Shown here one piece after another: positions 26,043-45,831 of a DNA stretch of 45,831 bases; position 1 is the first letter of the stretch; each line of letters starts with the position of its first letter. Source of the DNA: a bacterium (lineage in GTDB: Bacteria; Patescibacteriota; Saccharimonadia; Saccharimonadales; SZUA-47). The notes beneath the pieces were generated by a model that saw only the letters and a list, made by a program, of their open reading frames with translations, was not told the DNA's origin and made no database searches. Location: assembly GCA_009923445.1 (NCBI GenBank), contig RFTN01000006.1, positions 1-45,831 of the forward strand, read 5' to 3'. The translations under genes were made by a program, and so were the position numbers.

Positions 26043-27824
26043 CTATAGTTCTCTATTCATTATGTCATTCAACAATTTTAACTTGGATTTAATTTCATCG
26101 TCGGTCGTGGAAAGTGTATTAATAGTTTCTGTAACAGCGACTGTGCAATTGTAGGAGAGTAAAAAGTGGCTGCATTTAAGAATATCTTGTGAGCAGCCTT
26201 TTTGAATACTTTTGATGCCTTCTATAAGTTTAGCTGCCTTGCGTGTGGCTGGACTATCTTGAAGTTTATTGAGAGCGAACAAAGCACGATTAATGTATTT
26301 TTCCTTATGTATCTTTTGCATCAAATCTGATACATTTTCAATAAATGAATCAACATAGTCAACTGAAGTTAGCTCTATTCCGTTGTTCTTGCACGTTTGT
26401 TGGTTAACGACAACATCTAGGAACGCGCCACGGGTATAATATGTCTCGGATCCATAGTAATTGACCATACTAATGTATGTATTATATACATTCAGTTTAT
26501 CATGGTCCATGTATCGTTTGAAAAAGGTGGCAAAGTTATCAAGTAATCGTTTGTAATCACTATATTTTCGCAAAAAGTTCATTAAATTGTGTGCTGTGTC
26601 TAAATACGAACTGAACTTGCAGTTTGTCTCGATGTAGTTAAGTAGAAGTAAGCTCAAACTGTCGGAATAGCTTCCCACAAATTTAATGTTTTTTAGTAGT
26701 TTCATCAGTGCAAAGACGTGTTGGATGTGTGCATTTGACGCACGTGTGTACTGTAATGTTATGGAGCCGCAAGTGATGGGATTGGAGTAGATAACATCAT
26801 TTTCTGAGGGCGAAAATACAAACGTTCCTTGAAGTTTGATGAAACTTAGTCCATATAAATTGGTATCAAATAGAGTATCCGAGGTTTCATAAGGTCCAAA
26901 GATTGTTTGTAGATTAGTTTCAAAGCATTTAATCACGTTTGAGATGACTTTGTAGTTGCCGTACAACGTGATATCATAATCCGAATCAAGTTTTGTTGAA
27001 CCGACGCTTACCGCATTTATAGAATTGGTTTCTTGTATATTAAGCCGTGAGAGGGCACTAGTTTGGTTTTTGCTTGGTTGTGATGCAAGTGAGCAGACCG
27101 AGATAGAAATGTCAACACACACTTTGCGGAGGTACCAAAACAGGCACTTGCACACGAGCGAAAGCTCCTTAAACACGGTGACAAACTTGGTCGAGGACAA
27201 GCCATCTTGTGCAATGAATTGTTTGATCAGCTCGGTGTTGTCGGAAAACATTCCTAACAAGGTGATTGCCGATGACCTATGTCGTTCAAGGTATCGCTTG
27301 GCTTCGATGACTGACATACGTGTAATGGTTTCCCATACAAACGGTTTGTCTGTTGACATGACTTTGTATTCGTCGTTTTTGGAGGTCAACAAACCATATT
27401 TAGTAAAGAAGTTAAGTGCAATGTTCATGATGTGGCTAGTAGACACTATCTCGTAAGTGCCTTTTTCAAAAATGTACACACGACGTCTATTGACACCGGT
27501 CACACTGTCATTTTGTAAGTCTTTTTTAAGACGTTTTGTGAAATCGTTGAAATTACGGACAATATCTGATGATCCGCACTGTAATTCATACCAGTCAAAG
27601 TTCGAAACAGTGAATTCTAAAAAGGCTTCAAGATCTTTGACCAATGTGTAATCTACTTTGGACATACTTGAAGTGGACGACTTCGTGTCGTCACTAGTGG
27701 CAATGGACAAGGTTGAAAGTCTCATACCTACTGATGACCTGGGTCCCGCGGCAGACAGAGGAGACAGCAAGTCTGTGTGTATTTGACTTGGCCTTAGTGA
27801 TTCAATAGAACTGGTCTGCTCCAT
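26043..27824 (-). CDS. Hypothetical protein with putative Pol-beta-fold nucleotidyltransferase motif
   Basis: SVGSTKLDSDYDITL (GS...DxD) followed by FDTNLY. First ATG at 27824. Confidence 0.6.
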   Translation of the reverse strand: MEQTSSIESLRPSQIHTDLLSPLSAAGPRSSVGMRLSTLSIATSDDTKSSTSSMSKVDYTLVKDLEAFLEFTVSNFDWYELQCGSSDIVRNFNDFTKRLKKDLQNDSVTGVNRRRVYIFEKGTYEIVSTSHIMNIALNFFTKYGLLTSKNDEYKVMSTDKPFVWETITRMSVIEAKRYLERHRSSAITLLGMFSDNTELIKQFIAQDGLSSTKFVTVFKELSLVCKCLFWYLRKVCVDISISVCSLASQPSKNQTSALSRLNIQETNSINAVSVGSTKLDSDYDITLYGNYKVISNVIKCFETNLQTIFGPYETSDTLFDTNLYGLSFIKLQGTFVFSPSENDVIYSNPITCGSITLQYTRASNAHIQHVFALMKLLKNIKFVGSYSDSLSLLLLNYIETNCKFSSYLDTAHNLMNFLRKYSDYKRLLDNFATFFKRYMDHDKLNVYNTYISMVNYYGSETYYTRGAFLDVVVNQQTCKNNGIELTSVDYVDSFIENVSDLMQKIHKEKYINRALFALNKLQDSPATRKAAKLIEGIKSIQKGCSQDILKCSHFLLSYNCTVAVTETINTLSTTDDEIKSKLKLLNDIMNREL

Positions 27825-28007
27825 AATTACCAGTACCACACAAAAAATGTTTGGTATTTTGTCAGTCAATGTAATTATGATTTATTTATTTGTTAATTTT
27901 TTCTTGAAATGGGGGCAGGCAAAAAAGTAATAAAAAAGTAATAAAACCTCAGACGAGAGTGTCGTGACCCCGCCTAAAAGAAATCGGAAAAAACGGGAAA
28001 CCATCAA

Positions 28008-30459: not shown

Positions 30460-33291
30460 ATGTATACACGCAAGAGCATTGCCTTGAGGGATAAAGACGA
30501 ATCGCAAATTGTGTGTAATGAAGCGATTACAAAGTACTTCCTATTAGACAGTTACACGGAGTTCAGAAGGCTTATAGAGGACACTGAAAGCCCGTGTTTT
30601 TATGAATTTATTGGCTCTGACTCTCCGGTCAAAATGTTCATGGACATTGAAATATACAAATCTAAGCACTTGGACATGTTTAATGATCACAAAACCCTTA
30701 TTACAAGTATTGTCCAGTCTCTTCGAGTTGGACTTGCCGACATGAGCATTGAAACAAGTGTTGTTGTATTAGAGTCTCACAACGACACCAAACGCAGCTA
30801 TCACGTCATTTGTAATGGAGTGCGTAATGGAAAGATCGTTGCATTCCGGAACGCCAAGGCGCTCAAGACATGGATTACGTCGGTTTTTGGAGACCTTGTG
30901 CAACAAAAGATCGTTGATACAGCTGTTTATCGTGAGGGTCTTTTTAGAACGTACCTCAGCAGCAAACAGCATGAGTTTCGCCCGTTGGTGGCGAGTGATA
31001 TATCCGACTCATTTGATTTCTTAGATACTTTTGTGTGCCATTTCCACCTCACCTCACCGGATACTTATGAAATTGTAGAACTGGAAACTGTTACTCAACC
31101 CATAGAAATAGTCACAGAACATGACCAACAACGTGTATATGCTGAGCTTGATGCTTCAGACAAATCCGTTATTTCTCATTTCCTAAGACTTCATTATGCC
31201 ATCCGCCCAACTGACATTCGGGAGTTTCGAGTTGATACGCAATTGAATTGTATCATTATTAGTTTGCACGAGAAATTTTGTTACAATGTTCAAAGGGAGC
31301 ACCGTAGTAACCACCAATACATAGTTATAGACACGTATAGCTCTAAACAAAAGTGCCATGATACCGACTGTAGCAATTTCAAGTACACAGAGATAAAACT
31401 AGACAAATACCCACCAGACCTTTCTCAAATAGTGTTGAAATGCCTGCGTGTCAATCGAATAGAACAAGAGCTTATCCAAAAGGCCAAAGAGGATTGCAAA
31501 GACTACATAAATGAAAATTTTGACAATATTCAAGACATTACATTTGACAAAAACGAGCTTGTGTTTCGCGGAGATGCGACAACGGAAAGTCTAATGCGTG
31601 TAAATGGGAAATGCCCTCAGTGCAACCTTGAGCACCAAATTACAGGTGGTGGATACTGTATACGGTGCCGTGTGTGTAACAGTGTCTTTCCACGAAACCA
31701 GCTAATTCCAGTGGATGCCCGGTTTAAAGAAATACAGTCCTTCTGGAATAACTACACAAATTTGATCAATCATGGGACGGTCAACTACAATGTCACTGTC
31801 AACTACAACTCGGTGGTAGATGATACAGAGCAATTTGATTGTGATGTCAATTTAGAAGAGGACATTCTTAAAAACACACCTATAACAAAGTTATTTAATC
31901 AAATCCTTGATGGACACAAGATTACCAAGATTGGTGAACTGCTCAAGCGTCTTGAAGTGGATTTTCGGTATGCAAATGGGAATTGGTACTACTTTAACGG
32001 AAGTATATGGAAACATGACAATGAAACACTTGAATTTCGGAAAAAGATCGTAAAAATAACGAATATGACGCACACGATAAAGTCGTACTACGAATCAAGA
32101 CGAGGTGAACACAATGCCAAGTTGGTAAAAAGTGTCAAGGGTCTTGCTAACAAGTTCCATCGGCCCGGTTTTCAAGATGAAATTGTCAAGGGTGCCAAGA
32201 TGTATTTTCATGACGAATCGTTCTTAAAAAATCTGAATCGAAAAAAACACCTGGTACCATTTACAAATGGCGTGTTTGATTTGCTTGAACGCAAATTTCG
32301 AAAAACGCGCAAGGATGACTACGTTCTCCTCACAACAGAGTACGCATATGACGAACGTGCACGTAATCCCGGTGTATACGAATTTCTTGAACAGATCTTG
32401 CCTAATGCAGGTGTAAGAGACTTTGTATTAAAGAAGTTATCAGATTGTTTAAATGGTGATATACCAAACACGTATTTTTTAATGTTTATCGGCGACTCGG
32501 GTGCCAATGGCAAAAGTCAACTGCTTAATCTAGCAAAAGCGTGTTTTGGAGAGCTAGGGGAAAAGGTGGAAGTAACACTACTTACACGTAAGAGGAACAA
32601 TGCAAACGAAGCAAATAGCGAAAAGGTCAAATTGATGCACAAACGATTTGCATTTTTAAGTGAACCTGAAGATGGAGAAAAGATTAATATTGGTCTTCTT
32701 AAGGAACTCACTGGCTCGGAGGAAATCGTGGCCCGTGGACTTTACCAAGAACCGGTATCTTTTGTCATGGAAGCAAAGTTGTTCCTTGCATGTAACGAGC
32801 TTCCTGAAATCAAAGGCGAGGACACTGCTTTGTGGCGCAGAATTCGTGTTGTGGATTTCCCATCACGGTTTGTAGACAATCCTCAAAGGCCGGGTGAGTA
32901 CAAGATTGATAGAGACATCCCGTCAAAAATAAGAGAAAATATCTCATGGAGACAAACATTTATGAATATTCTTATTGACTACTACCACAAAGACGTCCCA
33001 GAACCTGAATCAGTTAGAATCACCACAAACGAATACCGCGAAGTAAACAATGACTTTTACAATTGGTTGTCAGAGAATGTCGTTGAATGTCCAGATTCTG
33101 CACTAAGACTCAAGGACGTTTGTGAAACGTACTTGATGAAAACCAAGATAGTGTCAAGAGAATCCACAAAATACAAAAAGGAGATTCAAAGATACATTAA
33201 AGAAAAGTACCCGCATCTAAAATGGGAATACCAAGATACCAGCATTAATGGAGATAAATTTAAAGGATGGGCTAAACTAAAACTCCGTTGA
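30460..33291 (+). CDS. D5: D5-like primase-helicase (AEP/PrimPol primase, Zn domains, SF3 helicase)
   Basis: FMDIE, SYHVI, DTAVY...FRT..SSK (primase); FTNGVFDL; Walker A GANGKS; SEPE, LKELTG, ACNELP, WRRIRVVDFPSRF. Confidence 0.95.
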   Translation: MYTRKSIALRDKDESQIVCNEAITKYFLLDSYTEFRRLIEDTESPCFYEFIGSDSPVKMFMDIEIYKSKHLDMFNDHKTLITSIVQSLRVGLADMSIETSVVVLESHNDTKRSYHVICNGVRNGKIVAFRNAKALKTWITSVFGDLVQQKIVDTAVYREGLFRTYLSSKQHEFRPLVASDISDSFDFLDTFVCHFHLTSPDTYEIVELETVTQPIEIVTEHDQQRVYAELDASDKSVISHFLRLHYAIRPTDIREFRVDTQLNCIIISLHEKFCYNVQREHRSNHQYIVIDTYSSKQKCHDTDCSNFKYTEIKLDKYPPDLSQIVLKCLRVNRIEQELIQKAKEDCKDYINENFDNIQDITFDKNELVFRGDATTESLMRVNGKCPQCNLEHQITGGGYCIRCRVCNSVFPRNQLIPVDARFKEIQSFWNNYTNLINHGTVNYNVTVNYNSVVDDTEQFDCDVNLEEDILKNTPITKLFNQILDGHKITKIGELLKRLEVDFRYANGNWYYFNGSIWKHDNETLEFRKKIVKITNMTHTIKSYYESRRGEHNAKLVKSVKGLANKFHRPGFQDEIVKGAKMYFHDESFLKNLNRKKHLVPFTNGVFDLLERKFRKTRKDDYVLLTTEYAYDERARNPGVYEFLEQILPNAGVRDFVLKKLSDCLNGDIPNTYFLMFIGDSGANGKSQLLNLAKACFGELGEKVEVTLLTRKRNNANEANSEKVKLMHKRFAFLSEPEDGEKINIGLLKELTGSEEIVARGLYQEPVSFVMEAKLFLACNELPEIKGEDTALWRRIRVVDFPSRFVDNPQRPGEYKIDRDIPSKIRENISWRQTFMNILIDYYHKDVPEPESVRITTNEYREVNNDFYNWLSENVVECPDSALRLKDVCETYLMKTKIVSRESTKYKKEIQRYIKEKYPHLKWEYQDTSINGDKFKGWAKLKLR

Positions 33292-33312
33292 GGAATTTTA
33301 CTTGTCGTCGAG

Positions 33313-33582
33313 TCAGCAATCAAAATGTGAATGCGATTCTCGCGAATACAATTCCTCTACAAAGTCCCTACCAGATTTTGTAAGCTTCCCCCGACCAAGA
33401 TCATCGAGCACAAACTCGCCTTCGTTGTCAGAATACCAAAGAATTAATAGACAATTGTAGCGGGTGTCGTATGTGTATACAACAGTAATACCATACGTTT
33501 CACCTTTGCATTTGGCTTGCCCTGTTTTAACAGCATTGCTTAAGATATCCATTTCTGTGTAAATCCGAAATGGAACTCCCAT
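33313..33582 (-). CDS. Hypothetical protein
   Basis: 89 aa ATG ORF in an intergenic gap. Confidence 0.5.
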   Translation of the reverse strand: MGVPFRIYTEMDILSNAVKTGQAKCKGETYGITVVYTYDTRYNCLLILWYSDNEGEFVLDDLGRGKLTKSGRDFVEELYSRESHSHFDC

Positions 33583-33683
33583 TAACTTACATTACATTTA
33601 CATAATTTTTTCAGGGTTTACATTTACGTAATTTTCAGGATTTACGTTTACACAATTTTCATGGTTTACGTACACGATCTACA

Positions 33684-34430
33684 TTATATAAATTTTTTTG
33701 ATCGCTTTCTTTGTTGTCGAAGTCCGTAATTAGGCAGTTTTAGTTTTTTCTTGAGTTCGTCTCGGAAATCTGTATTAAAAGAAAAGTGTGGTGCAAATGA
33801 ATGTTTTGCGTAACCTATGGCATCTTTTACAGCATTCAAGTCAGATTCAGAGTATGTAAACTCGAACATCCTGTCGAGGTTGTTGTCGGTGTAGTAATTG
33901 TATTGAAATTGCAGATTGTCTACAACTACTTCTTTTAGTTCAGTTGGAGACGCTGTAGCTGGTTCTGTAGTTGTAGTAGTAGTTTCAGAGTCAGTTTGTG
34001 TGGACACAGTTTGAGTTTGGGTGGAACGTCTTTCGATTTCAGATGTCAGATTTTGAATTCGTTCGGCATTTATTAGGATTACAGATTCTTGGTTTACAAC
34101 TGAATCGGTTAAGACTTGGTTTAGTTGTTTTAATTGTTCAACTGTGTTGTCAACTAGTTTTACAGGCATCGCACGAAGAATGTATAGTACATTGGTATGG
34201 TTTTGTTTTGTAGACCATATCCAGCCACTTTTCACTACTTCAGTTACGGACAGGATTTCGGCATTCCAACGGTCGTCAAGCTCACTTGTATTGAAAACTA
34301 AATCTGAATTCACATTCACGTTATCAAAAAAGGTTTTCATTTCTAAAAGCACTTGATCCTTAGTGAGTACTGCATTTGAGAGAACGTACTCATGTTTGCC
34401 TGTTGGAGCAACAACAATAACAAATGCCAT
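33684..34430 (-). CDS. Hypothetical protein with coiled-coil and Thr-rich linker
   Basis: 248 aa ATG ORF with a basic C-terminus. Confidence 0.7.
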   Translation of the reverse strand: MAFVIVVAPTGKHEYVLSNAVLTKDQVLLEMKTFFDNVNVNSDLVFNTSELDDRWNAEILSVTEVVKSGWIWSTKQNHTNVLYILRAMPVKLVDNTVEQLKQLNQVLTDSVVNQESVILINAERIQNLTSEIERRSTQTQTVSTQTDSETTTTTTEPATASPTELKEVVVDNLQFQYNYYTDNNLDRMFEFTYSESDLNAVKDAIGYAKHSFAPHFSFNTDFRDELKKKLKLPNYGLRQQRKRSKKFI

Positions 34431-34521
34431 TGTACGTTTTATAAAGGTACATTTGAAAAAGAATTTATGGGATACCCGCAGTCACGCAAAATTTTATTTA
34501 TTTGTTAATTTTATAACATAA

Positions 34522-37500
34522 ATGTCTGGTTTCAACGAGAATGCCATCGTGTACGAGTCGCAGGTGGTCATTAACGGGACATCGGCATCCAGTTCGAGCA
34601 CTGGAGGGCTCATCGTGAGCGGAGGATTGTCGACACGTGATACGTTTGTTAGCGGACATGTGTCGGTGAATCAAGTGAATATCACGCCTAATTTAAATGA
34701 CATTATTTACGAAAAGCAAGCCATCTTATCAAATAGCGTAACGACGTGGACGGACGTAAGCGGATTCCTCTTTGACAACACCATTGCAACCGCGTTCAAG
34801 GCCCATGTTACAGTGAATGTATCTACAGCTGATCCTAAGACGGCTATGTGGGAATTGAACGGTGTGTACCTGAGCAGTGGGTGGACTTTGACATCACGGT
34901 TTACAGGAGACTTGACAGGGGTCAACTTTGCGTTAACGTCTGCAGGTCAAGTTCAATACACAAACACGAACAGCTCTGGTACTACAACAATTAGATACCG
35001 TGCGACGACCAATGCTCCAGCGGGAACAAATCCCCTTAGTTACACAGGAACGGTGCTCCTGAATACGTCTGGGAATTATATTCCCAACAACCTGGTGTAT
35101 GCCAACACGGTTGATACATTGGCCACGACGGATATTACCTACACTTCAGACAAATTTGCAGTAGGAGGCAATTCAGTTGTTGTTATAGATAACGGTAGTA
35201 CATACACTGACGTGTCAAGAGGCGGTGCACTCACGGTAATGGGTGACACGAGTATAGCCAAGACACTTGTAGTCGGTCAGTCTGTAGGTGTTGGAGTGAC
35301 GAGCCCAAGTTACTCTCTGGATGTTTCTGGCGACATCCACTTTACGGGAGAGTTGTATCGCAACGGCGTCCCATTTGTGAGTAGCTTGTGGGGTGCAAAC
35401 GGAAATGATATCTATTACACACGTGGCAGTCTTGGTATCAACACTACCTCTCCGGCTTACACATTAGACGTGGTGGGAACAGCAAGAATCACAGATACCC
35501 TTACCACTGGATCTGTTCTTGCTGGTACTGTAAAAAGCACAGCTGCTACATTGGGCTCAGTCACAGCTACACAGGCGAATTTCACGACATTGTCTGCAGG
35601 AAGTGTCTATGTGACAGGTGACCTCAATGTCCTCTCAAGTGTCAATACAATCAACATGACAGTTGCAAACATGGTCGACACTAACTTGACCGTGTCAAAT
35701 ATCGTTGTTACAGACACGTTGACTGGTGGTTCCTTTGCGGTGTCCAATGCAAATGTATCCCAGTTGTCCACCGGGTCATTAACCTCTCTAAATGCAACTG
35801 TCGGAAGCATAACTAGCACTTCAGTGTCCATTGGCACTCTTTCAGCAATGACTGTAACGTCTGGCAATATAGCTGTTGGAAATGCTACATTATCCAACTT
35901 TGCAGCCGCAAATTTAACATCAGGAAATGTGACTATTACAAACGCAACAGGAACAAATTTAGTAGTAACTGGAAACTTGTCAGCTGGCAATGTATATTCT
36001 ACCGGTATTACTTCAACCAATGTCACAATTACCAATTTGACGTCTGCAAATGTGATCTCCACAAACGCGACAATGACAAACATAAATGTACTGGGCAATA
36101 TGAACGTACCCAATTTGGCCTCAACGAACCTGTCAAGTAGCTCACTCCTCACAACAACCGCCACTATCGGTACCGCGGTATTTGTAAACAGCACACTCAA
36201 CAACATGCAAGCAACAAATGTTACAACAACAAGTCTCTTAACAACAAGTTTGGTGTCTGGTGACATTTCAAGCACAACCGCTACCTCGACAAACATCGTC
36301 TTCACATTTGCTTCAGGAGGAAACTTGTACGTAACGGATGTATCATCCGGGTCCGTGAGCACCACGAATATGACTTCTGGTACATTCGCTGTAAGCAATG
36401 TTACAAGCACGAATATGCAATTCACCAATGCTACTGGAACAAACGTCAATGTAAGCACAGCTACAGCGGGAAGCATTGTCGCCAATACAAGCGTGTCCAC
36501 AGGATCATTTTCTACACGTGATGGCCAATTTACTAATGCAACAGCAACTACAATGATTGTATCGGGAAGTATAACTACTGGCAGTATTGTGGCTACAGGA
36601 AGTGCTACCACAGTTAGTATTACCGCGTCGACCGGTAATTACACAAACGTGACAACTACAAATTTAGTAACAAGCACTGCATCCCTTGGAACACTTGTAG
36701 GAACGGCACTGACAACAGGAACTATTACTGCAACAAATTCTACAGTGACGAATTTAATGTCTACGGCCATTACCTCGGGAAGCATATTTGTTTCTGGTAA
36801 TATTTCTGCAGCCAGTGCATACATCACCACAAGCTTGTCAGCAACAAATGTGTCAACTACTAATGTGTCCTCTACAAACGCCATAGTGACAAATGCAACA
36901 GCTACAAATATCGTTGCAACAAACATTTCTACTGGAACAATCGTGTCCACGAGTGTGTCGACGGCAAATGTGGTGTCTACTAATGCTACTCTTGGTCAAA
37001 TGCAGTTCACGACTGCCACAGGAAATGGACTTGTTTTGTCCACGGGCTTGTCTACAGGCACATTGTTGGCTACAAGTGTAACGGCTGCCAATATCGCTGT
37101 AAACGGAGCAACAGTGTCCAATTTAACAGTTACGAATGTGACAGCATCTAATCTTACATCTACAGGAATTACATCAGGGACTATTCGTGTTACAACTTTA
37201 CTTAGTTCAGCAAATGTCATTGCAACCAATGTTACCTCCACCAATGCCGTTGTCACAACAGGGAGCATTGGAACGCTTGTTAGTACAAATGTGACATCAC
37301 AAAATGTGTCTACACTTAATTTCACATCTGGTAGTGCAAATATCCTTAATGCCACAATGTCCAATGCCACTGTTACAAATATGACCTCAACAAATGTGAA
37401 TGTATCTAATGGTATTACATCCGGTGTGTTATTTGCGACATCGGGTACCTTTAGCACGGTGACTACAACTCAACTTACTGCTACAAACATCACCGCAACA

Positions 37501-40500
37501 AACATCAGTCTTTCTGGAAGCATCCAAACAACCACGGTCACATCCACAAACGCGACAACTGTAAATCTTCAATCCACAAACGCGTCAATTGGCTCGCTGA
37601 CTGTGTCCACGGCATTGGCAGCAACCGGAAATAGCAACACATTGGGAAATATTTTCACAACAGGAGGGAATGTGGGTGTTGCAACAACCAGTCCAAGTTT
37701 CACTCTTGATGTGTCTGGATCAGCACGCTTTAGCGTAGGATTTACCACAGGAACCCTTGCAGCCAATACATCCGTATCAACAGGTTCCCTTGCAACAGGA
37801 ACTTTGACAAGTGGTAATGCACTGATTACATCGATGTCAGTGTCTACATTAAATGCTTCAACAGTGACCACTGGATCTCTTGTCGCCACAAACGTAACAA
37901 CTGGAAGTATGACAGCATCCAATGTCATTGCAAGTAACATCACAAGTGCCACATTGAACTTGACTACTGGTATGACAGCAGGCTCACTTCAGGTTGCAAA
38001 CTTGACAAGCACTGGAAATCTTCAAGCTACACAAGCAACCGTTACAAACGCTATTGTAAGCACTTTTAGCGCAAGCACGCTTGTCATCACGGGCTCAATG
38101 ACCGTTGGATCAAATTTGTCTTCAAATGTCATTTCAGCTGGAAGTATTTCAACGCCAAGTGCAACGACGACGAATCTGATCATTACTAATGCAACAACGT
38201 CTCAAATTGTAGCGACAAATATCACTTCCAGTACTTTGGTGTCAACAAATGTGTCTACATCTAATGTTACAACTACCAATGCCACGGCAACGAATCTTGT
38301 ATTCACAAATGCCACAGGAGCAACATTGACATTGACAACAGGCTTGACAGCAGGCACGGTTTCAGCAATTGCTTCTATTTCTACAGGCGCGTTGTCGGCG
38401 ACAACAAGCACTATTTCGAATATCAATTTCATAAATGCCACTGGTGGAAGCATTGTTCTTTCTGGAAGTATTACTGCGGGGTCATTTGTTGCAACCAATG
38501 TAACTTCAACAAACGTCAGCGCTACGAATGTAACATCAACAAATGCAGTGATTACAAATGCAACGGCTACCAATTTGAACTTGACGACGGGCCTTACAAC
38601 AGCGACGTTATCTGCTACAAACAGCACACTTACGAACGTCATTGCGTCTAATGCCACATTCACAAATGCATTGTTTACGAATGCCACAGGGACGAATTTG
38701 GTCTTAACAAATTTGACATCAAGCAATTTGACGGCTACAAACATCTCAACAGGATCCCTAAATGCTACTAATGCAACGGTGCCCAATGTTGTTTTTACAA
38801 ATGTAAGTGCGGGTGCTTTGAACATCTCTTCGAGCTTGACAGTGTCAAGCGTGTCAACGGGAAGTTTGACTGCTACAAATCATACTTCTACAAACGTCTT
38901 AGTATCAAACATTACCACAAACAACTTGCAAGTCACAAGTACCTTGACAGTGCCTACGTTGTTGGCTTCTACACGTATTACAACAAGCAATGTGTCCACG
39001 TCTTCAGCAACTATTGGTAATGTAGTTGTTACCAACGTGACCGCTGGAACTCTAGTAGCGACGACAGGTGTGACTGCAGGAGTGTTGTTTTCTACTCTTG
39101 GTTCATTTTCGACGGTTACTTCTACATTGTTATCGGCTACTACATTGACGGGCGGAAACATTAGTTTATCTGGTAATTTGGTGGTTGCGGGCACACTTAC
39201 TACGGTCAATGTGACTACTACAAATTTGCTTGACACAAATGTCTCTGCTGGATCGATGCGCGTCACATCGTCGCTTAGTGCGCTTGGAAACAGCAATACA
39301 ATTGGCAGCATTTTCACGACTGGTGGTAATGTGGGCATTGGTACCACGAGCCCCGCCTATAGACTCGATGTCTCAGGTACTGCACGATTCGCCACAGGGC
39401 TTACGACAGGTACACTTGCAGCAAATACAAGCGTGTCATCGGCCAATGTAGCGGCAAACGCGGGTACATTTGGAAGTATTCTGGCTACGAATGTGTCTGC
39501 AAGCACATTAAATGTGACGAATGTGACTACAGGATCGATCCTAGCTACAACGGGTGTGTCCACGGGAACACTTACAGCTACAAACGTCACAGCAACAGGC
39601 GTCACAGCAAGCAATGTACTTGTGACCAATGCCCTTACTGCAGGTAACATTGTGGCTACTACGAGCACTTCTACGGGCAATTTAGCAGCTGGAAATTTGA
39701 CCGTAGGTAGCATTCGAGCTACAACAAGTGTCACAGCAGCAACATTACTAGCAACAACTGGGGTAACAGCAGGCGCATTGAATGTTACATCAACGTTTAC
39801 AGCTCCTTCTGCAATTTTCTCCAATGCTACTGTGACATCCCTGTTTGTCACTAATATTACATCTGCTGGTATTTTTACAACATCCGGTACACTTGGTTCC
39901 GTTACCTCTACAAATGTGACCACTTCGACAATGTTGTCAACCAATGCAACGACAACCAATTTGCAATTTACGGCTGCAACGGGAAGCAATTTGGTGATGA
40001 CAAATGTGACTACAGGTACGCTTAGTGCGACGACGAGTGTCAGTGCTGCCAATGTTGCAGGAGCAAACACAACTACGACTAATCTAGTATTTACCAATGC
40101 AACAGGAACAACATTGACGCTTACTACACTTTCTGCAGGAACGCTAGTGGCCACAACAAGTGTTAGCACAGGCGCGCTTACGGCATCACAAGCCACGATT
40201 GGAAATGTACAAGTTACGGGTGGAGTGACAACTGGATCGATTACGTCGACCACGGCAACAGTGACGTCTTTAGTTGCGTCTACGAATGTGTCCTCAAACA
40301 ATGTGACAGCCACCAATGTCACAAGCACCAACTTAAATGTGACCAATGTGACAAGCACCAATGTGTATGCTACAAATGTGACGTCAAGCACGCTATTGGC
40401 CACGACAAGTGTGAGTACGGCCAATCTTCTTGCCACCAATGCGACATTCCAGAACGTGATTGCAACCAATTTGACGGGATCGAATATTGTAGCAACATCA

Positions 40501-43500
40501 GGTTTTACAACAGGTACGTTACTTGCGTCTACAAGCGTGTCAACCGGAGCTTTCTCGAGCACATCAGCGACGGTAACCAATGCAGTGTTTTCGTCCGGCG
40601 GAACCATTGGTACATTGAATGCCACCGCGATGACGGTTGGAAACATCAACTTTACGGGAACTTTGTCCCAAAACGGTGCGCCATATGTGTCTTCGCAATG
40701 GACGACGGGCAGTGCAGGCAATCTCACATACACTGCAGGAAATGTGGGTATCAATACGACCAATCCACAATTCACGTTGGATGTCAATGGATCGGCGCGT
40801 ATTTCGTCAGGTATTACGGTGAGCAACTTGAACTTTACAGGAAGTTTGTATCAAAATGGTGTTCCATACAGTGCTACGTCACAATGGAGCGACGTGACGG
40901 GTGGCATTGCATACACTGCAGGGAATGTAGGTATTGGAACATCGAGCCCTAGTTACACACTGGATGTGTCTGGAGGCGCCCGTGTGACGGGAAATATAAC
41001 TGCAAGCAACATCGCGTTGCAAAGTTACATCAACAGCTATGGAAACATGGTTTTTAGCACATCAAACAGCACAGCTGTGACGACAAATGTGCGTACAATG
41101 GCAAATCGAATGCGCACGAGCCGAGCCAATGCAACAGCAGCGGTTTCAACATGGACTACACGAGCCAATCCTAGTCCTTTTGATCCATATTTCACATGTG
41201 TCACATGGTCTCCTGAATTGGGGCTTTTTGTTGCATCCGCCGTTAATGGTACTGGACAAGACATTATTTACTCATCAAATGGTGTAAACTGGACTGGTGT
41301 AAATACAAGTGGTGTCAATTTGGACAGAGTTGTTTGGGCAGCTGAGTTGGGTCTTTTTGTTATTGTAGGAAGCATGGGAATAGGAATGACATCTTCCACG
41401 GGTACTACATACACAACTGTTAGCATACCGTCACAAAATTGGGCTGGTATAACATGGAGTCCAGAGTTGTCCCTTCTTGTAGCTGTGGCCAATTCCGGAA
41501 CAGGCAATCGTGTGATGACATCCCCAGACGGTACCACGTGGACGACACAAAGAAGTGCTGCAGACAACTCTTGGTATGGAGTTACATGGAGTCCAGAATT
41601 GGGGATATTTGTGGCTGTGGCGGGTTCAGGTACAGGCAATCGTGTCATGACATCTCCAGATGGTATTAATTGGACTACACAAACAAGCGCAGCAGACAAC
41701 ATATGGAACAGTGTAGTGTGGTCAAGTGAGCTTGCTCTTTTTGTTGCAGTGGGTAGTTCTGGAACAGGTAATCGCGTGATGACCAGTCCAGACGGTATTA
41801 CGTGGACGACACGTACGAGCGCTGCAGATAATAGTTGGTATTGGGTCACTTGGAGTCCTGAACTGTCACTGTTCGTAGCTGTGGCAACTTCAGGCACAGG
41901 CAATGGTGTAATGACCAGTTCGGACGCAATAACATGGACCACACGTGCAAGTGCAGTAGACAATCAATGGAGAAGTGTGTGCTGGAGTCCTGAGCTGTCC
42001 ATCTTTGTTGCTGTTTCATATTCAGGAACGGGCAATCGGGTGATGACCTCTCGAATCGCATTGCCCTCGAGCAAGTCTGTGCCATTGGTGTCTCCTGCAT
42101 ATCTTACAGTCACCGATGGCAATTTGAACTTGGCGGGTAATTTGACCGTTGGCACGCTTGTGCTTACAACGGGACTTACAGTGAGTTCATTGGCTGTGAC
42201 ATCCTCGTTGAGTACGGGTACAATGAATGCAACGAATGCTACTGTAACCAATGCTGTGGTGACAAACGTTTCAGCTGGCAATATTGTTATTGGTACGGGA
42301 GCGACGCTAGGAAACGTCCTTGCCACGACAAGTGTGAGCACGGCCAATTTGGCAGCCAGCACAATTACCTCAGCCAATTTACTTGGAACATCCTTGACGG
42401 CAGGTACACTTGTAAGTACAAATGCCACCCTTGCAAATGTGACTACGACGAATTTAGTGGCGACTGTTATTACAGGAGGTACATTAAACTTGTCAGGAAA
42501 CCTGACGGTGTCAGGCACACTTACCATTACAAATTTGACCACAACCAACTTGGTAGACACAAATTTGTCCGTGGGAACGATGTATGTGAGCTCTGGATTG
42601 ACAGTGGTAGGATCATCCAATACAATAGGCAATATCTTTTTCACTGGAGGTAATATTGGTATCAATACAACAAGCCCTGCGTACACATTGGATGTTTCGG
42701 GAACGGGAGCATTTACAAATGTACTTGCGACAAATGTGAGTGCAAGTAACGCAACAGTGACAAATATGCTGGCAACGAATGTCACATTGTCGAATTTAAG
42801 CTTGTCCAATTTCACAGTTGGTTCGTTTGTTGGAACAAATATCAGCACATCTAGTTTGACATCTACAAATGCAACAACTTCAAATGTACAGGCGACTAGC
42901 GTTACAGCAACCAATTTACTAGTTACTACTGGTTTTACATCTGGGGCACTTGCAGTGACAGGGACATTGACTGCGGGATCCATTGTGTCTACGAGCGGTA
43001 CATTTACAAATGTGACAACGGACAGTCTGTTTGCAAATTCAGTTACAACTGGTAATGTGGTTGCTACAAACGTCACCAGTACAAATTTACAAGCTACGGA
43101 AACAAGCATCGGAAGTGCATTGTTGACAGGAATGACGGCAACCAATCTGACGGTGACCACAGGCTTTACAGCTGGCACAGTGCTTGTAAACAGCATTACG
43201 TCAAGCAATGGACAGTTCACAAATGTTACCATAGCAAATGTTCTTGCAACTAACGTGAGCTCTACGAATATCGTTGTTTCGGGTAATATGACGACAGGAC
43301 TCCTTACAGTCACATCTGCATTGTCTACGGGTTCAATTGTGGGAGCAAACGCCCAATTTACTACTTCGACAGTGACAAATTTGACCCTTACAAATATGAC
43401 GGCAAGTTCCTTAGTAACCAACTCTGCGACACTTACGGGAATTAACAGCACTACGGGTACACTTGGCAATGTACTTTTTACAAACGCTACGGGAACATCA

Positions 43501-45831
43501 CTGGTCACGTCTGATGCGACAATTGGCAATGTGTATCTTCTAAATATCACAGCAGGTGCATTGTACTCCTCCACAGGTACATTCACAAATGTGACTGCGA
43601 CAAACATTGTGTCTACAACAGGTACATTTGGTACACTACTTGCAACCAATGTGACAGGATCAAACGGCTTGTTTACAAATGCAACCTTGAGTAATTTCTT
43701 AATGAACAATGTGACAGTAGGATCTGCATTGGTTTTAGCAACAGGTCTAACGGCAGCAAACGTGAATATTACAGGAGGCTTGTACCAGAATGGTGCACTT
43801 GTTTTCACCGGATGGACTGCGAATACTGCAGGAAATGTGTGGTATACAGGTGGCAATGTGGGTATTCGCACAACTGCACCGCAATTTGCATTGGACGTGT
43901 CGGGTGGCGCACGCATCACGGGTGGTCTCACAGTGGGCAATCTCAATTACACAGGGACGCTGACGGTGAATGGTGTGGCTGTATCGGGATCTCCATTTGC
44001 TACAGTAACAGGAGGCATTGCTTACACAAGTGGTAATGTGGGTATTGGAACGACCAGTCCAAGTGTTACGTTAGATGTGTCTGGAGGTGTGCGTGTGACA
44101 GGAAATATAACTGCAGGCAATCTCGTTGTGCAAAACTACATCAATACTTATGGAAACATGGTCTATAGTACGTCCAATAGCACAGCGGTTACTACAAATA
44201 TGCGAACACTTGCTAATAGAATGCGTACAAGTCGTGCCAATGCGGCTGCTACGGTATCACAGTGGCAAACACGCAGCAACGCCATAGACAACAATTGGAC
44301 GGGGATCGCTTGGAGTCCAGAATTGGGGTTGCTTGTGGCTGTGTCTAATACAGGCACTGGTAATCGTGTGATGACTTCACCTGATGGAATAAATTGGACG
44401 ACTCGTGTCAGCGCGGTAGACAACGATTGGAGTAGCGTAGTATGGGCAGCTGAATTGTCATTGTTTGTTGCAGTGTCCTCGACTGGTACAGGAAATCGTG
44501 TAATGACCAGTCCAGATGGTATTACGTGGACTACTCGTGCAAGTGCTGTGGACAATAATTGGACTAGTGTGACATGGTCTAGTGACTTGTCGCTTTTCGT
44601 GGCAGTATCTTCTACAGGTACAGGAAACGGTGTGATGACCAGTCCGGACGGTATTACGTGGACAACTAGAGCAAGTGCGGCAAACAATTCATGGAACACA
44701 GTGACGTGGAGTCCGGAATTGTCCCTTTTCGTGGCGGTGTCGACGAGCGGCGCTGGTAATAGAGTGATGACCAGTCCCGATGGTTTTGTGTGGACTACAC
44801 GTGCAAGTGCGGTAGACAATTCATGGAACAGTGTAGTGTGGTCAGGTGAACTTGGCATTTTTGTGGCGGTGTCTTCTGGAGGCACTGGCAACAATGTGAT
44901 GACATCGAGTGAAGGTATTACATGGACTACACGTGCAAGTGCAGCAAACAACTCGTGGAACAGTGTAGTGTGGTCTAATGAACTTTCCATGTTCGTGGCT
45001 GTTTCATCTACCGGTACGGGCAATTGTGTGATGACCTCGAGTGACGGTGTCACGTGGACAACCCGTGCAAGCGCTGCGGACAATGGATGGCAAAGCGTAG
45101 CGTGGGTCCCAGAGTTGTCAAGGTTTGTTGCGGTGTCGAGCACGGGTACAGGTACGCGTGTCATGACTTCGCAGATTGCGCTTCCAGCAAGCAAATCGAC
45201 ATTGTTGGTATCACCTGCGTACTTGACGGCAACAGACGGAACATTGAATCTAACGGGCACACTCAATGTCACGACGATGTCGGCTGCAAATTTGAGTGCA
45301 ACGAATGTTACGGTGTCATCGCTGTCTGCTGTAACCATTACCTCAAGCAACATCCTGGCTACTAATGCGACCATTACGAACTTGCTATTTACGAATTTAA
45401 CAACAAGTAACTTGACATTAACAAGTTTAACTGCTGCAAATTTAATTATCACAAACAATATCAACAGTTACGGAAACGTGGTGAATTCTACGACCAACAG
45501 TACGGCGATTTCTACAAATGTTCGTGTGCTCTCTAACCGCATCCGCACAAGTCGGGCTAATGTGGCCTCCGCGGTAAGCACATGGACTACGCGCGCCAGT
45601 GCAGTGGATAACAGTTGGAATTCCGTTGTGTGGAGTCCGGAATTATCCCTTTTTGTAGCAGTGTCCTCTGGCGGAACAGGCAATAATGTGATGACCAGTC
45701 CTGATGGAATTACGTGGACGACACGTGCAAGTGCTGCAAACAACAATTGGGCCGAAATGGCGTGGGCTCCAGAATTGTCCATTTTCGTGGCAGTATCTAC
45801 CAGCGGTGCAGGCAATCGTGTGATGACCAGT
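34522..45831 (+). CDS. Giant (at least 3770 aa, 3'-truncated) Thr/Ser/Asn-rich fibre/adhesin-like protein with beta-propeller modules
   Basis: ATG 34522 (MSGFNENAIVYESQ...) stays in frame to the last codon. The ORF track lists no stop-terminated ORF in this frame. Contains nine G(N/S)(V/I/L)G(I/V)xTxxPx(Y/F)xLDVxG-like motifs, TNVT/TNAT-type repeats and WSPELxLFVAV...GNRVMTSPDGITW repeats. Confidence 0.92.
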   Translation, partial: MSGFNENAIVYESQVVINGTSASSSSTGGLIVSGGLSTRDTFVSGHVSVNQVNITPNLNDIIYEKQAILSNSVTTWTDVSGFLFDNTIATAFKAHVTVNVSTADPKTAMWELNGVYLSSGWTLTSRFTGDLTGVNFALTSAGQVQYTNTNSSGTTTIRYRATTNAPAGTNPLSYTGTVLLNTSGNYIPNNLVYANTVDTLATTDITYTSDKFAVGGNSVVVIDNGSTYTDVSRGGALTVMGDTSIAKTLVVGQSVGVGVTSPSYSLDVSGDIHFTGELYRNGVPFVSSLWGANGNDIYYTRGSLGINTTSPAYTLDVVGTARITDTLTTGSVLAGTVKSTAATLGSVTATQANFTTLSAGSVYVTGDLNVLSSVNTINMTVANMVDTNLTVSNIVVTDTLTGGSFAVSNANVSQLSTGSLTSLNATVGSITSTSVSIGTLSAMTVTSGNIAVGNATLSNFAAANLTSGNVTITNATGTNLVVTGNLSAGNVYSTGITSTNVTITNLTSANVISTNATMTNINVLGNMNVPNLASTNLSSSSLLTTTATIGTAVFVNSTLNNMQATNVTTTSLLTTSLVSGDISSTTATSTNIVFTFASGGNLYVTDVSSGSVSTTNMTSGTFAVSNVTSTNMQFTNATGTNVNVSTATAGSIVANTSVSTGSFSTRDGQFTNATATTMIVSGSITTGSIVATGSATTVSITASTGNYTNVTTTNLVTSTASLGTLVGTALTTGTITATNSTVTNLMSTAITSGSIFVSGNISAASAYITTSLSATNVSTTNVSSTNAIVTNATATNIVATNISTGTIVSTSVSTANVVSTNATLGQMQFTTATGNGLVLSTGLSTGTLLATSVTAANIAVNGATVSNLTVTNVTASNLTSTGITSGTIRVTTLLSSANVIATNVTSTNAVVTTGSIGTLVSTNVTSQNVSTLNFTSGSANILNATMSNATVTNMTSTNVNVSNGITSGVLFATSGTFSTVTTTQLTATNITATNISLSGSIQTTTVTSTNATTVNLQSTNASIGSLTVSTALAATGNSNTLGNIFTTGGNVGVATTSPSFTLDVSGSARFSVGFTTGTLAANTSVSTGSLATGTLTSGNALITSMSVSTLNASTVTTGSLVATNVTTGSMTASNVIASNITSATLNLTTGMTAGSLQVANLTSTGNLQATQATVTNAIVSTFSASTLVITGSMTVGSNLSSNVISAGSISTPSATTTNLIITNATTSQIVATNITSSTLVSTNVSTSNVTTTNATATNLVFTNATGATLTLTTGLTAGTVSAIASISTGALSATTSTISNINFINATGGSIVLSGSITAGSFVATNVTSTNVSATNVTSTNAVITNATATNLNLTTGLTTATLSATNSTLTNVIASNATFTNALFTNATGTNLVLTNLTSSNLTATNISTGSLNATNATVPNVVFTNVSAGALNISSSLTVSSVSTGSLTATNHTSTNVLVSNITTNNLQVTSTLTVPTLLASTRITTSNVSTSSATIGNVVVTNVTAGTLVATTGVTAGVLFSTLGSFSTVTSTLLSATTLTGGNISLSGNLVVAGTLTTVNVTTTNLLDTNVSAGSMRVTSSLSALGNSNTIGSIFTTGGNVGIGTTSPAYRLDVSGTARFATGLTTGTLAANTSVSSANVAANAGTFGSILATNVSASTLNVTNVTTGSILATTGVSTGTLTATNVTATGVTASNVLVTNALTAGNIVATTSTSTGNLAAGNLTVGSIRATTSVTAATLLATTGVTAGALNVTSTFTAPSAIFSNATVTSLFVTNITSAGIFTTSGTLGSVTSTNVTTSTMLSTNATTTNLQFTAATGSNLVMTNVTTGTLSATTSVSAANVAGANTTTTNLVFTNATGTTLTLTTLSAGTLVATTSVSTGALTASQATIGNVQVTGGVTTGSITSTTATVTSLVASTNVSSNNVTATNVTSTNLNVTNVTSTNVYATNVTSSTLLATTSVSTANLLATNATFQNVIATNLTGSNIVATSGFTTGTLLASTSVSTGAFSSTSATVTNAVFSSGGTIGTLNATAMTVGNINFTGTLSQNGAPYVSSQWTTGSAGNLTYTAGNVGINTTNPQFTLDVNGSARISSGITVSNLNFTGSLYQNGVPYSATSQWSDVTGGIAYTAGNVGIGTSSPSYTLDVSGGARVTGNITASNIALQSYINSYGNMVFSTSNSTAVTTNVRTMANRMRTSRANATAAVSTWTTRANPSPFDPYFTCVTWSPELGLFVASAVNGTGQDIIYSSNGVNWTGVNTSGVNLDRVVWAAELGLFVIVGSMGIGMTSSTGTTYTTVSIPSQNWAGITWSPELSLLVAVANSGTGNRVMTSPDGTTWTTQRSAADNSWYGVTWSPELGIFVAVAGSGTGNRVMTSPDGINWTTQTSAADNIWNSVVWSSELALFVAVGSSGTGNRVMTSPDGITWTTRTSAADNSWYWVTWSPELSLFVAVATSGTGNGVMTSSDAITWTTRASAVDNQWRSVCWSPELSIFVAVSYSGTGNRVMTSRIALPSSKSVPLVSPAYLTVTDGNLNLAGNLTVGTLVLTTGLTVSSLAVTSSLSTGTMNATNATVTNAVVTNVSAGNIVIGTGATLGNVLATTSVSTANLAASTITSANLLGTSLTAGTLVSTNATLANVTTTNLVATVITGGTLNLSGNLTVSGTLTITNLTTTNLVDTNLSVGTMYVSSGLTVVGSSNTIGNIFFTGGNIGINTTSPAYTLDVSGTGAFTNVLATNVSASNATVTNMLATNVTLSNLSLSNFTVGSFVGTNISTSSLTSTNATTSNVQATSVTATNLLVTTGFTSGALAVTGTLTAGSIVSTSGTFTNVTTDSLFANSVTTGNVVATNVTSTNLQATETSIGSALLTGMTATNLTVTTGFTAGTVLVNSITSSNGQFTNVTIANVLATNVSSTNIVVSGNMTTGLLTVTSALSTGSIVGANAQFTTSTVTNLTLTNMTASSLVTNSATLTGINSTTGTLGNVLFTNATGTSLVTSDATIGNVYLLNITAGALYSSTGTFTNVTATNIVSTTGTFGTLLATNVTGSNGLFTNATLSNFLMNNVTVGSALVLATGLTAANVNITGGLYQNGALVFTGWTANTAGNVWYTGGNVGIRTTAPQFALDVSGGARITGGLTVGNLNYTGTLTVNGVAVSGSPFATVTGGIAYTSGNVGIGTTSPSVTLDVSGGVRVTGNITAGNLVVQNYINTYGNMVYSTSNSTAVTTNMRTLANRMRTSRANAAATVSQWQTRSNAIDNNWTGIAWSPELGLLVAVSNTGTGNRVMTSPDGINWTTRVSAVDNDWSSVVWAAELSLFVAVSSTGTGNRVMTSPDGITWTTRASAVDNNWTSVTWSSDLSLFVAVSSTGTGNGVMTSPDGITWTTRASAANNSWNTVTWSPELSLFVAVSTSGAGNRVMTSPDGFVWTTRASAVDNSWNSVVWSGELGIFVAVSSGGTGNNVMTSSEGITWTTRASAANNSWNSVVWSNELSMFVAVSSTGTGNCVMTSSDGVTWTTRASAADNGWQSVAWVPELSRFVAVSSTGTGTRVMTSQIALPASKSTLLVSPAYLTATDGTLNLTGTLNVTTMSAANLSATNVTVSSLSAVTITSSNILATNATITNLLFTNLTTSNLTLTSLTAANLIITNNINSYGNVVNSTTNSTAISTNVRVLSNRIRTSRANVASAVSTWTTRASAVDNSWNSVVWSPELSLFVAVSSGGTGNNVMTSPDGITWTTRASAANNNWAEMAWAPELSIFVAVSTSGAGNRVMTS
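41152..42060 (+). repeat. Propeller module 1: seven ~44 aa WSPEL/SPDG repeats
   Basis: Seven copies counted; the first two are divergent. Confidence 0.85.
44263..45180 (+). repeat. Propeller module 2: seven 44 aa (132 bp) WSPEL/SPDG repeats
   Basis: Seven copies counted. Confidence 0.88.
45583..45831 (+). repeat. Propeller module 3 (truncated by window end)
   Basis: Same leader peptide and two repeat copies before the edge. Confidence 0.8.

Follow-up and report, generated by a model that had tools for sequence, protein, structure and literature searches.

What is encoded in the last 11.3 kb of contig RFTN01000006.1 (assembly GCA_009923445.1), and to which organism does it belong? The window, that is the whole stretch analyzed here, is this entire contig (45,831 nt; C123), one of 177 in a 1.8 Mb assembly, and its positions 34522-45831 form a single ATG-started frame on the forward strand with 3770 codons, no stop and an open 3' end. 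Our analyses indicate that the frame likely covers the 5' portion, 3770 aa or more, of a freshwater giant-virus gene for a homotrimeric adhesive fibre resembling phage tail fibres and mosaic adhesive trimers (MATs). We further infer where on the virion this fibre would sit and what it would bind.

A stop-free run over 3770 codons has a chance probability of about 1e-93 when calculated from the gene's own base composition. This agrees with an earlier sequence-only reading of the contig, which had proposed one open frame overlooked by the open reading frame (ORF) track; the omission most likely arose because ORF lists drop open-ended frames. The frame ends because the contig ends there. The encoded protein is rich in T (21%), S (13.7%), V (10.6%) and N (10.3%). 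Contigs from two public runs, X1 and X2, cover positions 33000-41136 and 41109-44904 with zero differences; the runs come from two studies, and since the source sample could be either of them, no more than one is independent. A third run, X3, held only small pieces of the sequence. Twelve ORFs of 103-660 aa lie on the minus strand inside the fibre gene (window 35607-45830) and are probably shadow frames of biased codon usage.

Anatomy of the predicted fibre

The frame resolves into an N-terminal domain, five shafts, nine joints and three propeller modules, as follows (window coordinates, strand, feature and its basis).

34522-45831, +: 5' part of the fibre gene, 3770 codons, open at the contig end (frame; X1 and X2 contigs continuing into a further blade)
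34522-35031, +: conserved N-terminal domain, aa 1-170, with a beta-sandwich core at aa 55-168; proposed capsid-proximal anchor and trimer start (relatives, AlphaFold2, fold matches, trimer interface)
35272-35481, +: joint doublet 1, aa 255-268 and 304-317, with NFTGxLYxNG spacer (pattern, trimer contacts, PHROG)
35554-37641, +: shaft 1, aa 345-1040, with T-N-[VALI]-[TS]-x period (autocorrelation, consensus, phmmer)
37660-37722, +: joint 3 (pattern)
37744-39306, +: shaft 2, aa 1075-1595, period 5 (autocorrelation)
39319-39381, +: joint 4 (pattern)
39394-40701, +: shaft 3, aa 1625-2060, period 5 (autocorrelation)
40732-40977, +: joint doublet 2, aa 2075-2088 and 2136-2149 (pattern; PHROG E 3.9e-11; 8ojn E 0.024)
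41029-41130, +: leader 1, aa 2170-2203, of low monomer pLDDT, holding the 28-nt identity with contig C109
41131-42054, +: predicted propeller 1, seven 44-aa blades (AlphaFold2; 7-bladed matches, Z up to 32.7)
42055-42078, +: IALPSSKS tail 1 (motif)
42109-42621, +: shaft 4, aa 2530-2700 (autocorrelation)
42643-42705, +: joint 7 (pattern)
42709-43791, +: shaft 5, aa 2730-3090, period 5 (autocorrelation)
43846-44088, +: joint doublet 3, aa 3113-3126 and 3173-3186 (pattern)
44140-44241, +: leader 2, aa 3207-3240 (motif)
44242-45174, +: predicted propeller 2, seven 44-aa blades, 68% identical to module 1 (repeat spacing and alignment)
45175-45198, +: IALPASKS tail 2 (motif)
45460-45561, +: leader 3, aa 3647-3680, without a preceding joint doublet (motif and joint pattern)
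45562-45831, +: predicted propeller 3, blades 1-2, cut by the contig end; a third blade is present in the X1 and X2 contigs

A search with residues 1-253 identified 47 related proteins of 444-2000 aa (E <= 1e-5), most of them with 46-55% identity over 97-100% of the query; a Peptidase_S74 domain ended 35 of the 47. Longer proteins gave seven further matches to the N-terminal domain, among which only P0002 (2469 aa; 52% identity over 96% of aa 1-340) covered the whole query; this protein also ends in S74. Two other relatives were a complete 993-aa protein with S74 (locus L011) and a 1403-aa protein with a different end (L012). When aa 1-330 were modelled as a monomer, AlphaFold2 produced a confident fold in the core at aa 55-168 only, an eight-stranded beta-sandwich with a pLDDT (the per-residue confidence score of the model) of 75-85, compared with 55.5 for the whole region. 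Among solved structures, this core best matched beta-sandwich domains from tailspikes and tail fibres of phages and from a baseplate protein (Z 10.2, 9.8, 9.5 and 8.1; root-mean-square deviation 3.0-4.2 over 101-108 residues), with scores falling to about Z 5 by rank 8. A protein-atlas feature search gave unnamed phage clusters (best score 0.94), which serve as leads only. In phage virion fibres the conserved N-terminus is the attachment end and the remainder is variable; the N-terminal domain studied here would be the particle-proximal attachment end.

Modelling of segments as trimers had been suggested by the sequence-only reading and gave a positive result. Three copies of aa 1-330, run with an alignment of four relatives, reached an interface score (ipSAE) of 0.89 in three runs compared with 0.00 for the best of three controls, with a contact agreement of at least 96% and a partner pLDDT of at least 83. 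The predicted interface was formed by aa 8-58 and 186-330, both of which had lacked order in the monomer, and the tightest predicted contacts fell at aa 250-323, in joint doublet 1. The N-terminal 330 residues are thus modelled as an intertwined homotrimer, in keeping with the S74 ends found among relatives of the N-terminal domain; the S74 domain ensures productive trimerisation (PMC10769870 and its references). Papers are cited here by PMC number.

A loose pattern identified exactly nine GNVGIGTTSP-type joints, at nt 35272, 35419, 37660, 39319, 40732, 40915, 42643, 43846 and 44026, all within about 10 nt of the places at which they had first been noticed. Single joints lie mid-shaft at aa 1051, 1604 and 2712, after a '...LGNIFTTGGNVG' run, and doublets with an 'NFTGxLYQNG...W' spacer lie at aa 255/304, 2075/2136 and 3113/3173, the second and third of them immediately before a propeller leader. 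The doublet region matched PHROG tail-fibre families (E 3.9e-11 and 3.3e-8), and the joints aligned to both capping loops of Bd3182 (PDB 8ojn; whole-sequence E 0.024). The 8OJN structure is that of Bdellovibrio Bd3182, a mosaic adhesive trimer whose intertwined trimeric beta-helix has its edges capped by the loops, and the consensus capping-loop motif is also present in other S74 proteins (PMC10769870). This motif, V-G-x-G/N-x-x-x-P-x-x-x-L, occurs in nine copies in the fibre. Because of the alignment to the 8ojn loops and the motif published for S74 proteins, we identify the joints, at the level of sequence, as the known capping-loop motif of S74 and MAT fibres. This supports the earlier reading of the frame as a fibre-type protein.

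The shafts had been described as T/S/N-rich and beta-rich; the composition is as stated, and to it must be added a strict 5-residue period, which was present in all five. Autocorrelation at lag 5 was 0.18-0.35 for hydrophobic residues and 0.27-0.44 for Asn, with the lowest values in the short shaft 4; lag-10 echoes were found in all shafts, and further echoes at lags 15 and 20 in the longer ones. In shaft 1 the values were 0.35-0.44 at lag 5 and 0.28-0.35 at lag 10. The consensus around N, T-N-[VALI]-[TS]-x, fits the pentapeptide-repeat consensus [STAV][DN][LF][STR]x. No Pfam pentapeptide model (PF00805 and relatives) matched the shafts at E <= 0.1. With phmmer, shaft 1 matched designed beta-solenoids (E 1.4e-5 to 6e-3; 4yfo at 1.4e-5 and 5dra at 5e-5), which we take to be derived from pentapeptide repeats; 4YFO is tabled as a de novo solenoid (PMC5748646). 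Since lags 15 and 20 are similar, a triangular intertwined trimeric helix fits as well as a four-sided single-chain solenoid. Depending on this choice, the fibre would measure from about 60 nm, with separate solenoids, to about 200 nm, when scaled like the 550-Å model of Bd3182 (PMC10769870).

Leaders were located at aa 2170, 3207 and 3647 (nt 41029, 44140 and 45460) and IALPxSKS tails at nt 42055 and 45175. Between them, 16 WSPEL-type blades are spaced by exactly 44 aa in sets of seven, seven and two, the last set being cut by the contig end. At least three propeller modules with conserved leaders, two of them complete and ending in IALPxSKS, had been expected from the first inspection, and this count held. 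Seven modules from the assembly are 47-68% identical to module 1, and an AlphaFold2 model of module 1 built on their alignment had a pLDDT of 81.6, a pTM (overall fold score) of 0.82 and approximately 28 strands; in this monomer neither the leader, which makes up the first 32 residues, nor the tail was ordered. Foldseek and a wide VIA search both placed 7-bladed propellers on top: virginiamycin B lyase (Z 32.7, root-mean-square deviation 2.3, 282 residues aligned), WD40 proteins and YncE, and in Foldseek Ycf48. The modelling thus confirms the module as a predicted 7-bladed beta-propeller, as the earlier reading of serial 7-bladed propellers had it. These matches span many unrelated families, and none of them stands out as a specific propeller family.

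By sequence, the module belongs to a very large family. At E <= 1e-3 its relatives filled 18,392 representative clusters, and 4,077 were left at E <= 1e-30; the proteins reached a length of 7024 aa, and the closest relatives include Bacteroidota proteins at 57% identity. Among the 120 relatives listed (642-2000 aa), 27 carried S74, 11 a type IX secretion system (T9SS) sorting domain and about 40 a precomputed EPTP annotation; those with names were Bacteroidota. The viral blades read W-S-P-E-L where bacterial blades read F/Y-G-N-G-L, and crude patterns divided the 150 best representatives into 87 with WSPEL blades, 47 with YGNG blades, one mixed and 15 with neither. Fibre marks (a joint or an S74-like motif) accompanied 24 of the 87 WSPEL-type proteins compared with 4 of the 47 YGNG-type proteins, and by pattern count 77 of the 150 had at least eight blades. 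Some complete proteins, such as P0067, show the order joint-propeller-joint-propeller-joint-S74. The module was present in 8 of 50,697 phage records, six of them with genomes of 244-385 kb and one match annotated as tail fibre. In BFVD the best matches came from an uncultured phage, with an S74 protein at 58% identity, and from Hokovirus, with a collagen-repeat protein at 44%. In the protein-atlas search the propeller scored 0.82 at best, and a phage cluster labelled EPTP / DUF6242_C scored 0.79, again as leads only.

An alternative is that the propellers are enzymes, surface-polysaccharide depolymerases carried on the same trimeric fibre in the manner of the K1F endosialidase propeller cap. 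Propellers on a trimeric S74-type fibre do parallel the endosialidase layout, the top fold match of the wide search is an enzyme (virginiamycin B lyase), and the N-terminal domain resembles C-terminal domains of depolymerase tailspikes. However, fold matches within one Z unit are tied and most of these are non-enzymes, and a profile of the seven modules found no solved enzyme by sequence (best E against solved structures 0.94). The Asp-box pattern S-x-D-x-G-x-T-W had 0 matches in the fibre, where the blades carry S-P-D-G-I-T-W, one residue shorter, and no BNR Pfam family matched. In addition, the near-identical blades (about 70% DNA identity), with W, SPDG and TW at the same positions in every blade, would be typical of multivalent lectin propellers and not of single asymmetric active sites. 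We therefore regard the depolymerase explanation as unlikely and favour propellers that bind. Given near-identical blades with conserved Trp and SPDG, and by analogy to symmetric lectin propellers, each blade may offer a binding site, which would give high avidity for a repetitive ligand.

Continuity of the gene and its sister copies

The two long pieces of the X1 and X2 contigs break at 41109-41136, where they overlap by 28 nt only. These 28 nt lie in the leader of module 1 and are identical to the leader on the paralogue contig C109, around position 7682, and for this reason the join is not independently bridged. An assembly chimera had been named from the outset as a result that would overturn the fibre; the contigs of both runs agree with the frame over the positions that they cover, and a paralogue swap at this one junction is possible.

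In that case the 5' 6.6 kb and the 3' 4.7 kb would come from two paralogous fibre genes of one genome, joined at the conserved leader, an explanation which we rate as improbable, about on a par with the depolymerase. The shared break with its overlap identical in C109, together with at least five further family fragments in the assembly, speaks in its favour. Against it, word depths are similar on both sides (67.5 and 82.5 in X1; 10.5 and 9.3 in X2), although paralogues of one genome would look alike, and no 25-mer is repeated inside the gene. Moreover, both partners would be in-frame genes of the same architecture, so that a swap at the leader would keep the frame and affect the length of the chain but leave the anatomy as described.

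Module 1 and module 2, including joints and leaders, share 66.8% DNA identity over 1159 nt; cassette identity is 67-74% overall and blade-to-blade identity 67-80%. Internal duplication of cassettes, as first proposed, is thus apparent, but at 67-74% DNA identity and with no repeated 25-mer the cassettes are old duplicates or separately acquired copies. A recent duplication or a collapsed-repeat artefact was ruled out by the same two observations.

Past position 45818 the X1 and X2 contigs step back by 132 nt, equal to one blade, repeat 64 nt of the previous blade and then continue into a new in-frame blade. Assembly of the contig stopped at 45831 because the blades share 64-nt identities. No exact end overlap linked the contig to any of the 177 contigs, and its last 40 nt are unique. 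Extension towards the C-terminus, as had been advised, therefore yielded one further blade from the public runs; no overlapping contig was found in the assembly, and the C-terminus was not reached.

Sister genes show what may follow. A paralogue fragment with shaft and joints (C177) ends in S74 (E 3.2e-15). Contig C108 encodes an N-terminal domain, shafts and one propeller in an open-ended frame of at least 2760 aa; C109 encodes three propellers, then a region of SBBP-type propeller, a joint and an end domain of about 150 aa, after which comes a D5-like gene. On C151, SBBP repeats occur together with shaft, joints and propellers, and C53 and C100 carry further family fragments. In two of these the 44-aa-blade propellers share a chain with the second propeller type (Pfam SBBP, E 7e-11 and 2.7e-11): locus L002 on C109 (3356-5500, -) and L003 on C151 (2-901, +). 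A second, non-S74 C-terminal type, an FDIxHP domain of about 150 aa, ends the sister genes on C108 and C109. On the minus strand of C108 (L001, 9094-8100) a last blade is followed by an IALPASKS tail, a joint, the FDIxHP domain of about 150 aa and a stop, and the start of the next fibre gene follows closely. The fibre genes are in tandem, since this contig holds the end of one, its stop and the start of the next. From the fit of the two contigs, C108 may follow C123 after the missing blades. The expectation of an S74 C-terminus is thus borne out in relatives (35 of 47, P0002 and L011), while the fibre's own C-terminus lies beyond the contig.

Carrier, proposed location and mode of action

The 34 kb upstream of the fibre gene encode a major capsid protein of nucleocytoplasmic large DNA viruses (NCLDV), with Capsid_NCLDV and Capsid_N domains (Pfam, E 2e-29 and 4e-32). 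By Pfam, the same contig also encodes a D5-type primase-helicase, MutS domains I, III and V, TFIIS, asparagine synthase (AsnS), a GT41 glycosyltransferase with tetratricopeptide repeats (TPR) and a YqaJ recombinase, a gene set which we take to be typical of mimivirus-like viruses (Imitervirales). The gene closest to the question of linkage is the following.

30460-33291, +: D5-type primase-helicase gene, physically linked to the fibre gene (Pfam D5_N, DUF5906 and UL52; single X1 and X2 contigs run from upstream of 33000 to 41136)

Judged by this gene content, the carrier is a giant virus of eukaryotes and not a phage or bacterium; the sequence-only reading had pointed to fibre proteins of phages and bacteria. 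Membership of the fibre gene in the giant-virus genome follows from four observations. The GC content at its third codon positions is 0.400, compared with 0.39-0.45 in ten other genes of the contig; its higher overall GC is due to codon position 2, that is to a T/S/A/G-rich protein. In X1 as in X2, the D5 region and the first 6.6 kb of the fibre gene lie together on one contig. Searches for the N-terminal domain gave two loci in viral_contigs (from 18 candidate stretches), both on GVMAG-named contigs. Finally, the best viral structural match of the N-terminal domain was a protein labelled Mimivirus AB-566-O17, at 37% identity.

Other ORFs of the contig were noted in passing. A 977-aa ORF at 21103-24036 (+) has a kinesin motor domain (Pfam Kinesin, E 4.3e-12). 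Neither the 608-aa ORF beside the capsid gene (26043-27869, -) nor the 248-aa ORF just upstream of the fibre gene (33684-34430, -) had a Pfam match.

One of the two GVMAG-named loci shares the GT41 and YqaJ genes with the window: at L012 (5343-7619, +) this pair lies directly downstream of the fibre homologue. In the window, the GT41 (O-GlcNAc-transferase-like) TPR gene lies at 17214-19460 (-) and is likewise kept together with the YqaJ gene. The fibre contains 175 N-x-S/T sequons compared with 132 +/- 8.7 in shuffled sequences. Together with the S/T-rich shafts and the GT41 genes in the window and beside the L012 homologue, this excess raises the idea of fibre glycosylation, suggestively at most, since the sequons follow from the repeat consensus itself.

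The fibre need not be part of the virion: it could be made in the infected cell and displayed or released there, clumping cells, binding bacteria or coating the viral factory. The capsid location is our inference only, and homologous propellers occur on bacterial cell-surface proteins with T9SS signals. However, the first 30 residues contain no hydrophobic, signal-peptide-like stretch, and the conserved N-terminus, variable distal part and S74 end of the relatives form the pattern of phage virion fibres. Adhesins enriched in genomic islands of giant viruses are also discussed as surface adhesion proteins (PMC13620141). Taken together, we consider a non-virion role less probable than either the enzymatic or the composite explanation. 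Wrong joining of bacterial or phage DNA to a giant-virus contig, to which the 57% identity of Bacteroidota propellers and the bacterial origin reported for such giant-virus adhesins (PMC13620141) might point, is very improbable given the single contigs that join the D5 primase region to the fibre gene in two runs, the matching third-position GC, and the N-terminal domain on GVMAG-named contigs with shared neighbours and in the Mimivirus AB-566-O17 protein.

For a fibre on the virion, the anatomy suggests the following mode of action. Three chains would associate from the very N-terminus, as the trimer model predicts, and the beta-sandwich domain would dock the fibre on the capsid. The chains would continue as long beta-helical shafts of the observed T-N-hydrophobic-T/S-x pentapeptides, interrupted by the GNVGIGTTSPxYTLDVSG capping-loop motifs, with each shaft either one intertwined triple helix or three separate solenoids. 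At three nodes or more, each chain would leave the axis through the leader, fold a predicted 7-bladed propeller and return through the IALPxSKS tail; each node would hold three propellers, since each of the three chains forms one there. The propellers, which are homologous to those on Bacteroidota T9SS surface proteins and phage S74 fibres, would act as multivalent and most likely lectin-like modules that bind a ligand on the surface of the eukaryotic host. The missing C-terminus, to judge from relatives, is probably a self-cleaving Peptidase_S74 trimerisation chaperone or the FDIxHP domain of about 150 aa.

A wider picture can be drawn, although we hold it as doubtful. In giant viruses of freshwater protists, mosaic fibre genes derived from bacteria or phages may be arranged in tandem, and their products would be capsid fibres of 0.1-0.2 micrometre with nine or more lectin-like propellers, three per node, and up to 21 sites per node. 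A coat of such fibres might grip host glycans or imitate a bacterial surface for phagotrophic uptake, with cassette shuffling among paralogues, bacteria and phages setting the host range.

Several points weigh against the reading of an anchored homotrimeric fibre. Searches of Pfam, NCBIfam and PHROG gave no family for the N-terminal domain and none of its own for the propeller (whole protein and pieces; six pieces for NCBIfam); with Pfam the whole protein gave only a weak MotY_N match over the leader, and no stretch passed alone. The beta-sandwich domain also closes four other proteins of the assembly (1236-1488 aa, 31-38% identity), and since it does so, anchoring is not its sole possible role; distal binding or trimerisation fits as well. 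These C-terminal copies are located as follows.

L007, 1868-2500, -: C-terminal copy of the beta-sandwich domain
L008, 4301-4930, +: C-terminal copy of the beta-sandwich domain
L009, 7010-7639, +: C-terminal copy of the beta-sandwich domain
L010, 4709-5338, +: C-terminal copy of the beta-sandwich domain

In the calibration of the mark used to judge the trimer, 20 of 30 solved pairs passed, as did 1 of 23 single chains; it used two copies rather than three, with its own alignments, and the score of the fibre may partly reflect that the predictor had seen solved trimers of S74 proteins and tail fibres. The putative beta-helical fold of the shafts follows from period and consensus, and the period is compatible with either type of helix. 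Two sister genes may have been joined at 41109-41136 to give the 3770-aa chain. The 3770 aa available contain no S74, the C-terminus lying past the contig end, and none of the public runs listed for the fibre gene held RNA. As a separate observation, the four proteins with a C-terminal copy had no significant Pfam domain except for one marginal match, and the C69 protein gave four tblastn matches to the beta-sandwich domain.

Relation to known fibres and implications

The closest parallel in design is the MAT family, exemplified by Bd3182 (8OJN). That family combines a long intertwined trimeric beta-helix, capping loops, a conserved beta-rich N-terminal domain, S74 and non-S74 types of C-terminus, and mosaic, swappable modules (PMC10769870). 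The giant-virus fibre has the capping loops and a conserved beta-rich domain at its N-terminus, would form a similar trimeric helix from mosaic modules, and has both types of C-terminus among its relatives and sister genes. In contrast, MAT fibres are bacterial, carry a signal peptide, measure about 600-1150 aa and present one binding domain at the tip (PMC10769870), whereas the fibre described here is viral, lacks a signal peptide, spans at least 3770 aa and would hold its propellers inside the fibre at several nodes.

Phage S74 fibres and tailspikes such as K1F endosialidase and T5 pb1 have the same loop motif on a trimeric beta-helix stalk; relatives of the giant-virus fibre share their S74 end, and its N-terminal domain resembles a tailspike beta-sandwich. 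K1F endosialidase has three beta-propellers on a trimer, preceding a triple beta-helix and an S74 chaperone. The giant-virus fibre differs in its carrier, a virus of eukaryotes, in its seven blades without Asp-boxes, in the several propeller nodes in series and in being several times longer. The EPTP/EAR propeller (PF03736) of Bacteroidota T9SS surface proteins has the same seven blades of about 44 residues. Two bacterial homologues of the module, P0042 and P0177 (E ~1e-293 and ~1e-269 to the module), pass the EPTP gathering score over the same repeats, with 79.7 and 127.1 bits; EPTP gave no match to the viral module at E <= 0.1 (whole protein and either module), and the gathering score was passed by the bacterial homologues only. 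Mimivirus capsid fibrils are likewise long fibres on a giant-virus capsid. We take these fibrils to mediate adhesion and uptake and to be made of unrelated proteins, a GMC-type oxidoreductase and others; no such Pfam family matched the fibre described here.

Adhesive proteins have been reported in giant viruses before. S74 'chaperone of endosialidase' genes lie in giant-virus genomic islands and are taken as surface adhesins of bacterial origin (PMC13620141), one such S74 gene lies in the terminal repeats of Budvirus (PMC10960955), and tail-fibre-like genes occur in PelV-1 (PMC12338748). In their available parts, the accounts of PMC13620141 and PMC10960955 describe no architecture, propellers or proteins of such size. 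In our literature search we met neither this architecture nor the propeller family, nor any fibre with propeller nodes inside it, although supplements may list such genes. Among the papers listed, none linked mosaic adhesive trimers to giant viruses, or EPTP to phage, tail-fibre or giant-virus topics.

Host recognition and entry are unknown for most giant viruses, and the receptor-binding proteins of uncultured mimivirus-like viruses are nearly unexplored. The fibre gene provides a concrete candidate for such a protein, and its proposed anchor domain can mark fibre genes in metagenome-assembled genomes of giant viruses. Such fibres are common in metagenomes, and none has been studied so far. 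The propeller spans Bacteroidota surface proteins, jumbo phages and giant viruses, no curated model recognises its viral form and it has no known ligand; solving one propeller together with the ligand it binds would bring annotation to thousands of proteins in one step. A trimeric fibre with propeller nodes along its length, if true, would be structurally without a described counterpart in viruses so far. In its protein architecture, the locus also exemplifies the movement of adhesin genes that has been reported among bacteria, phages and giant viruses.

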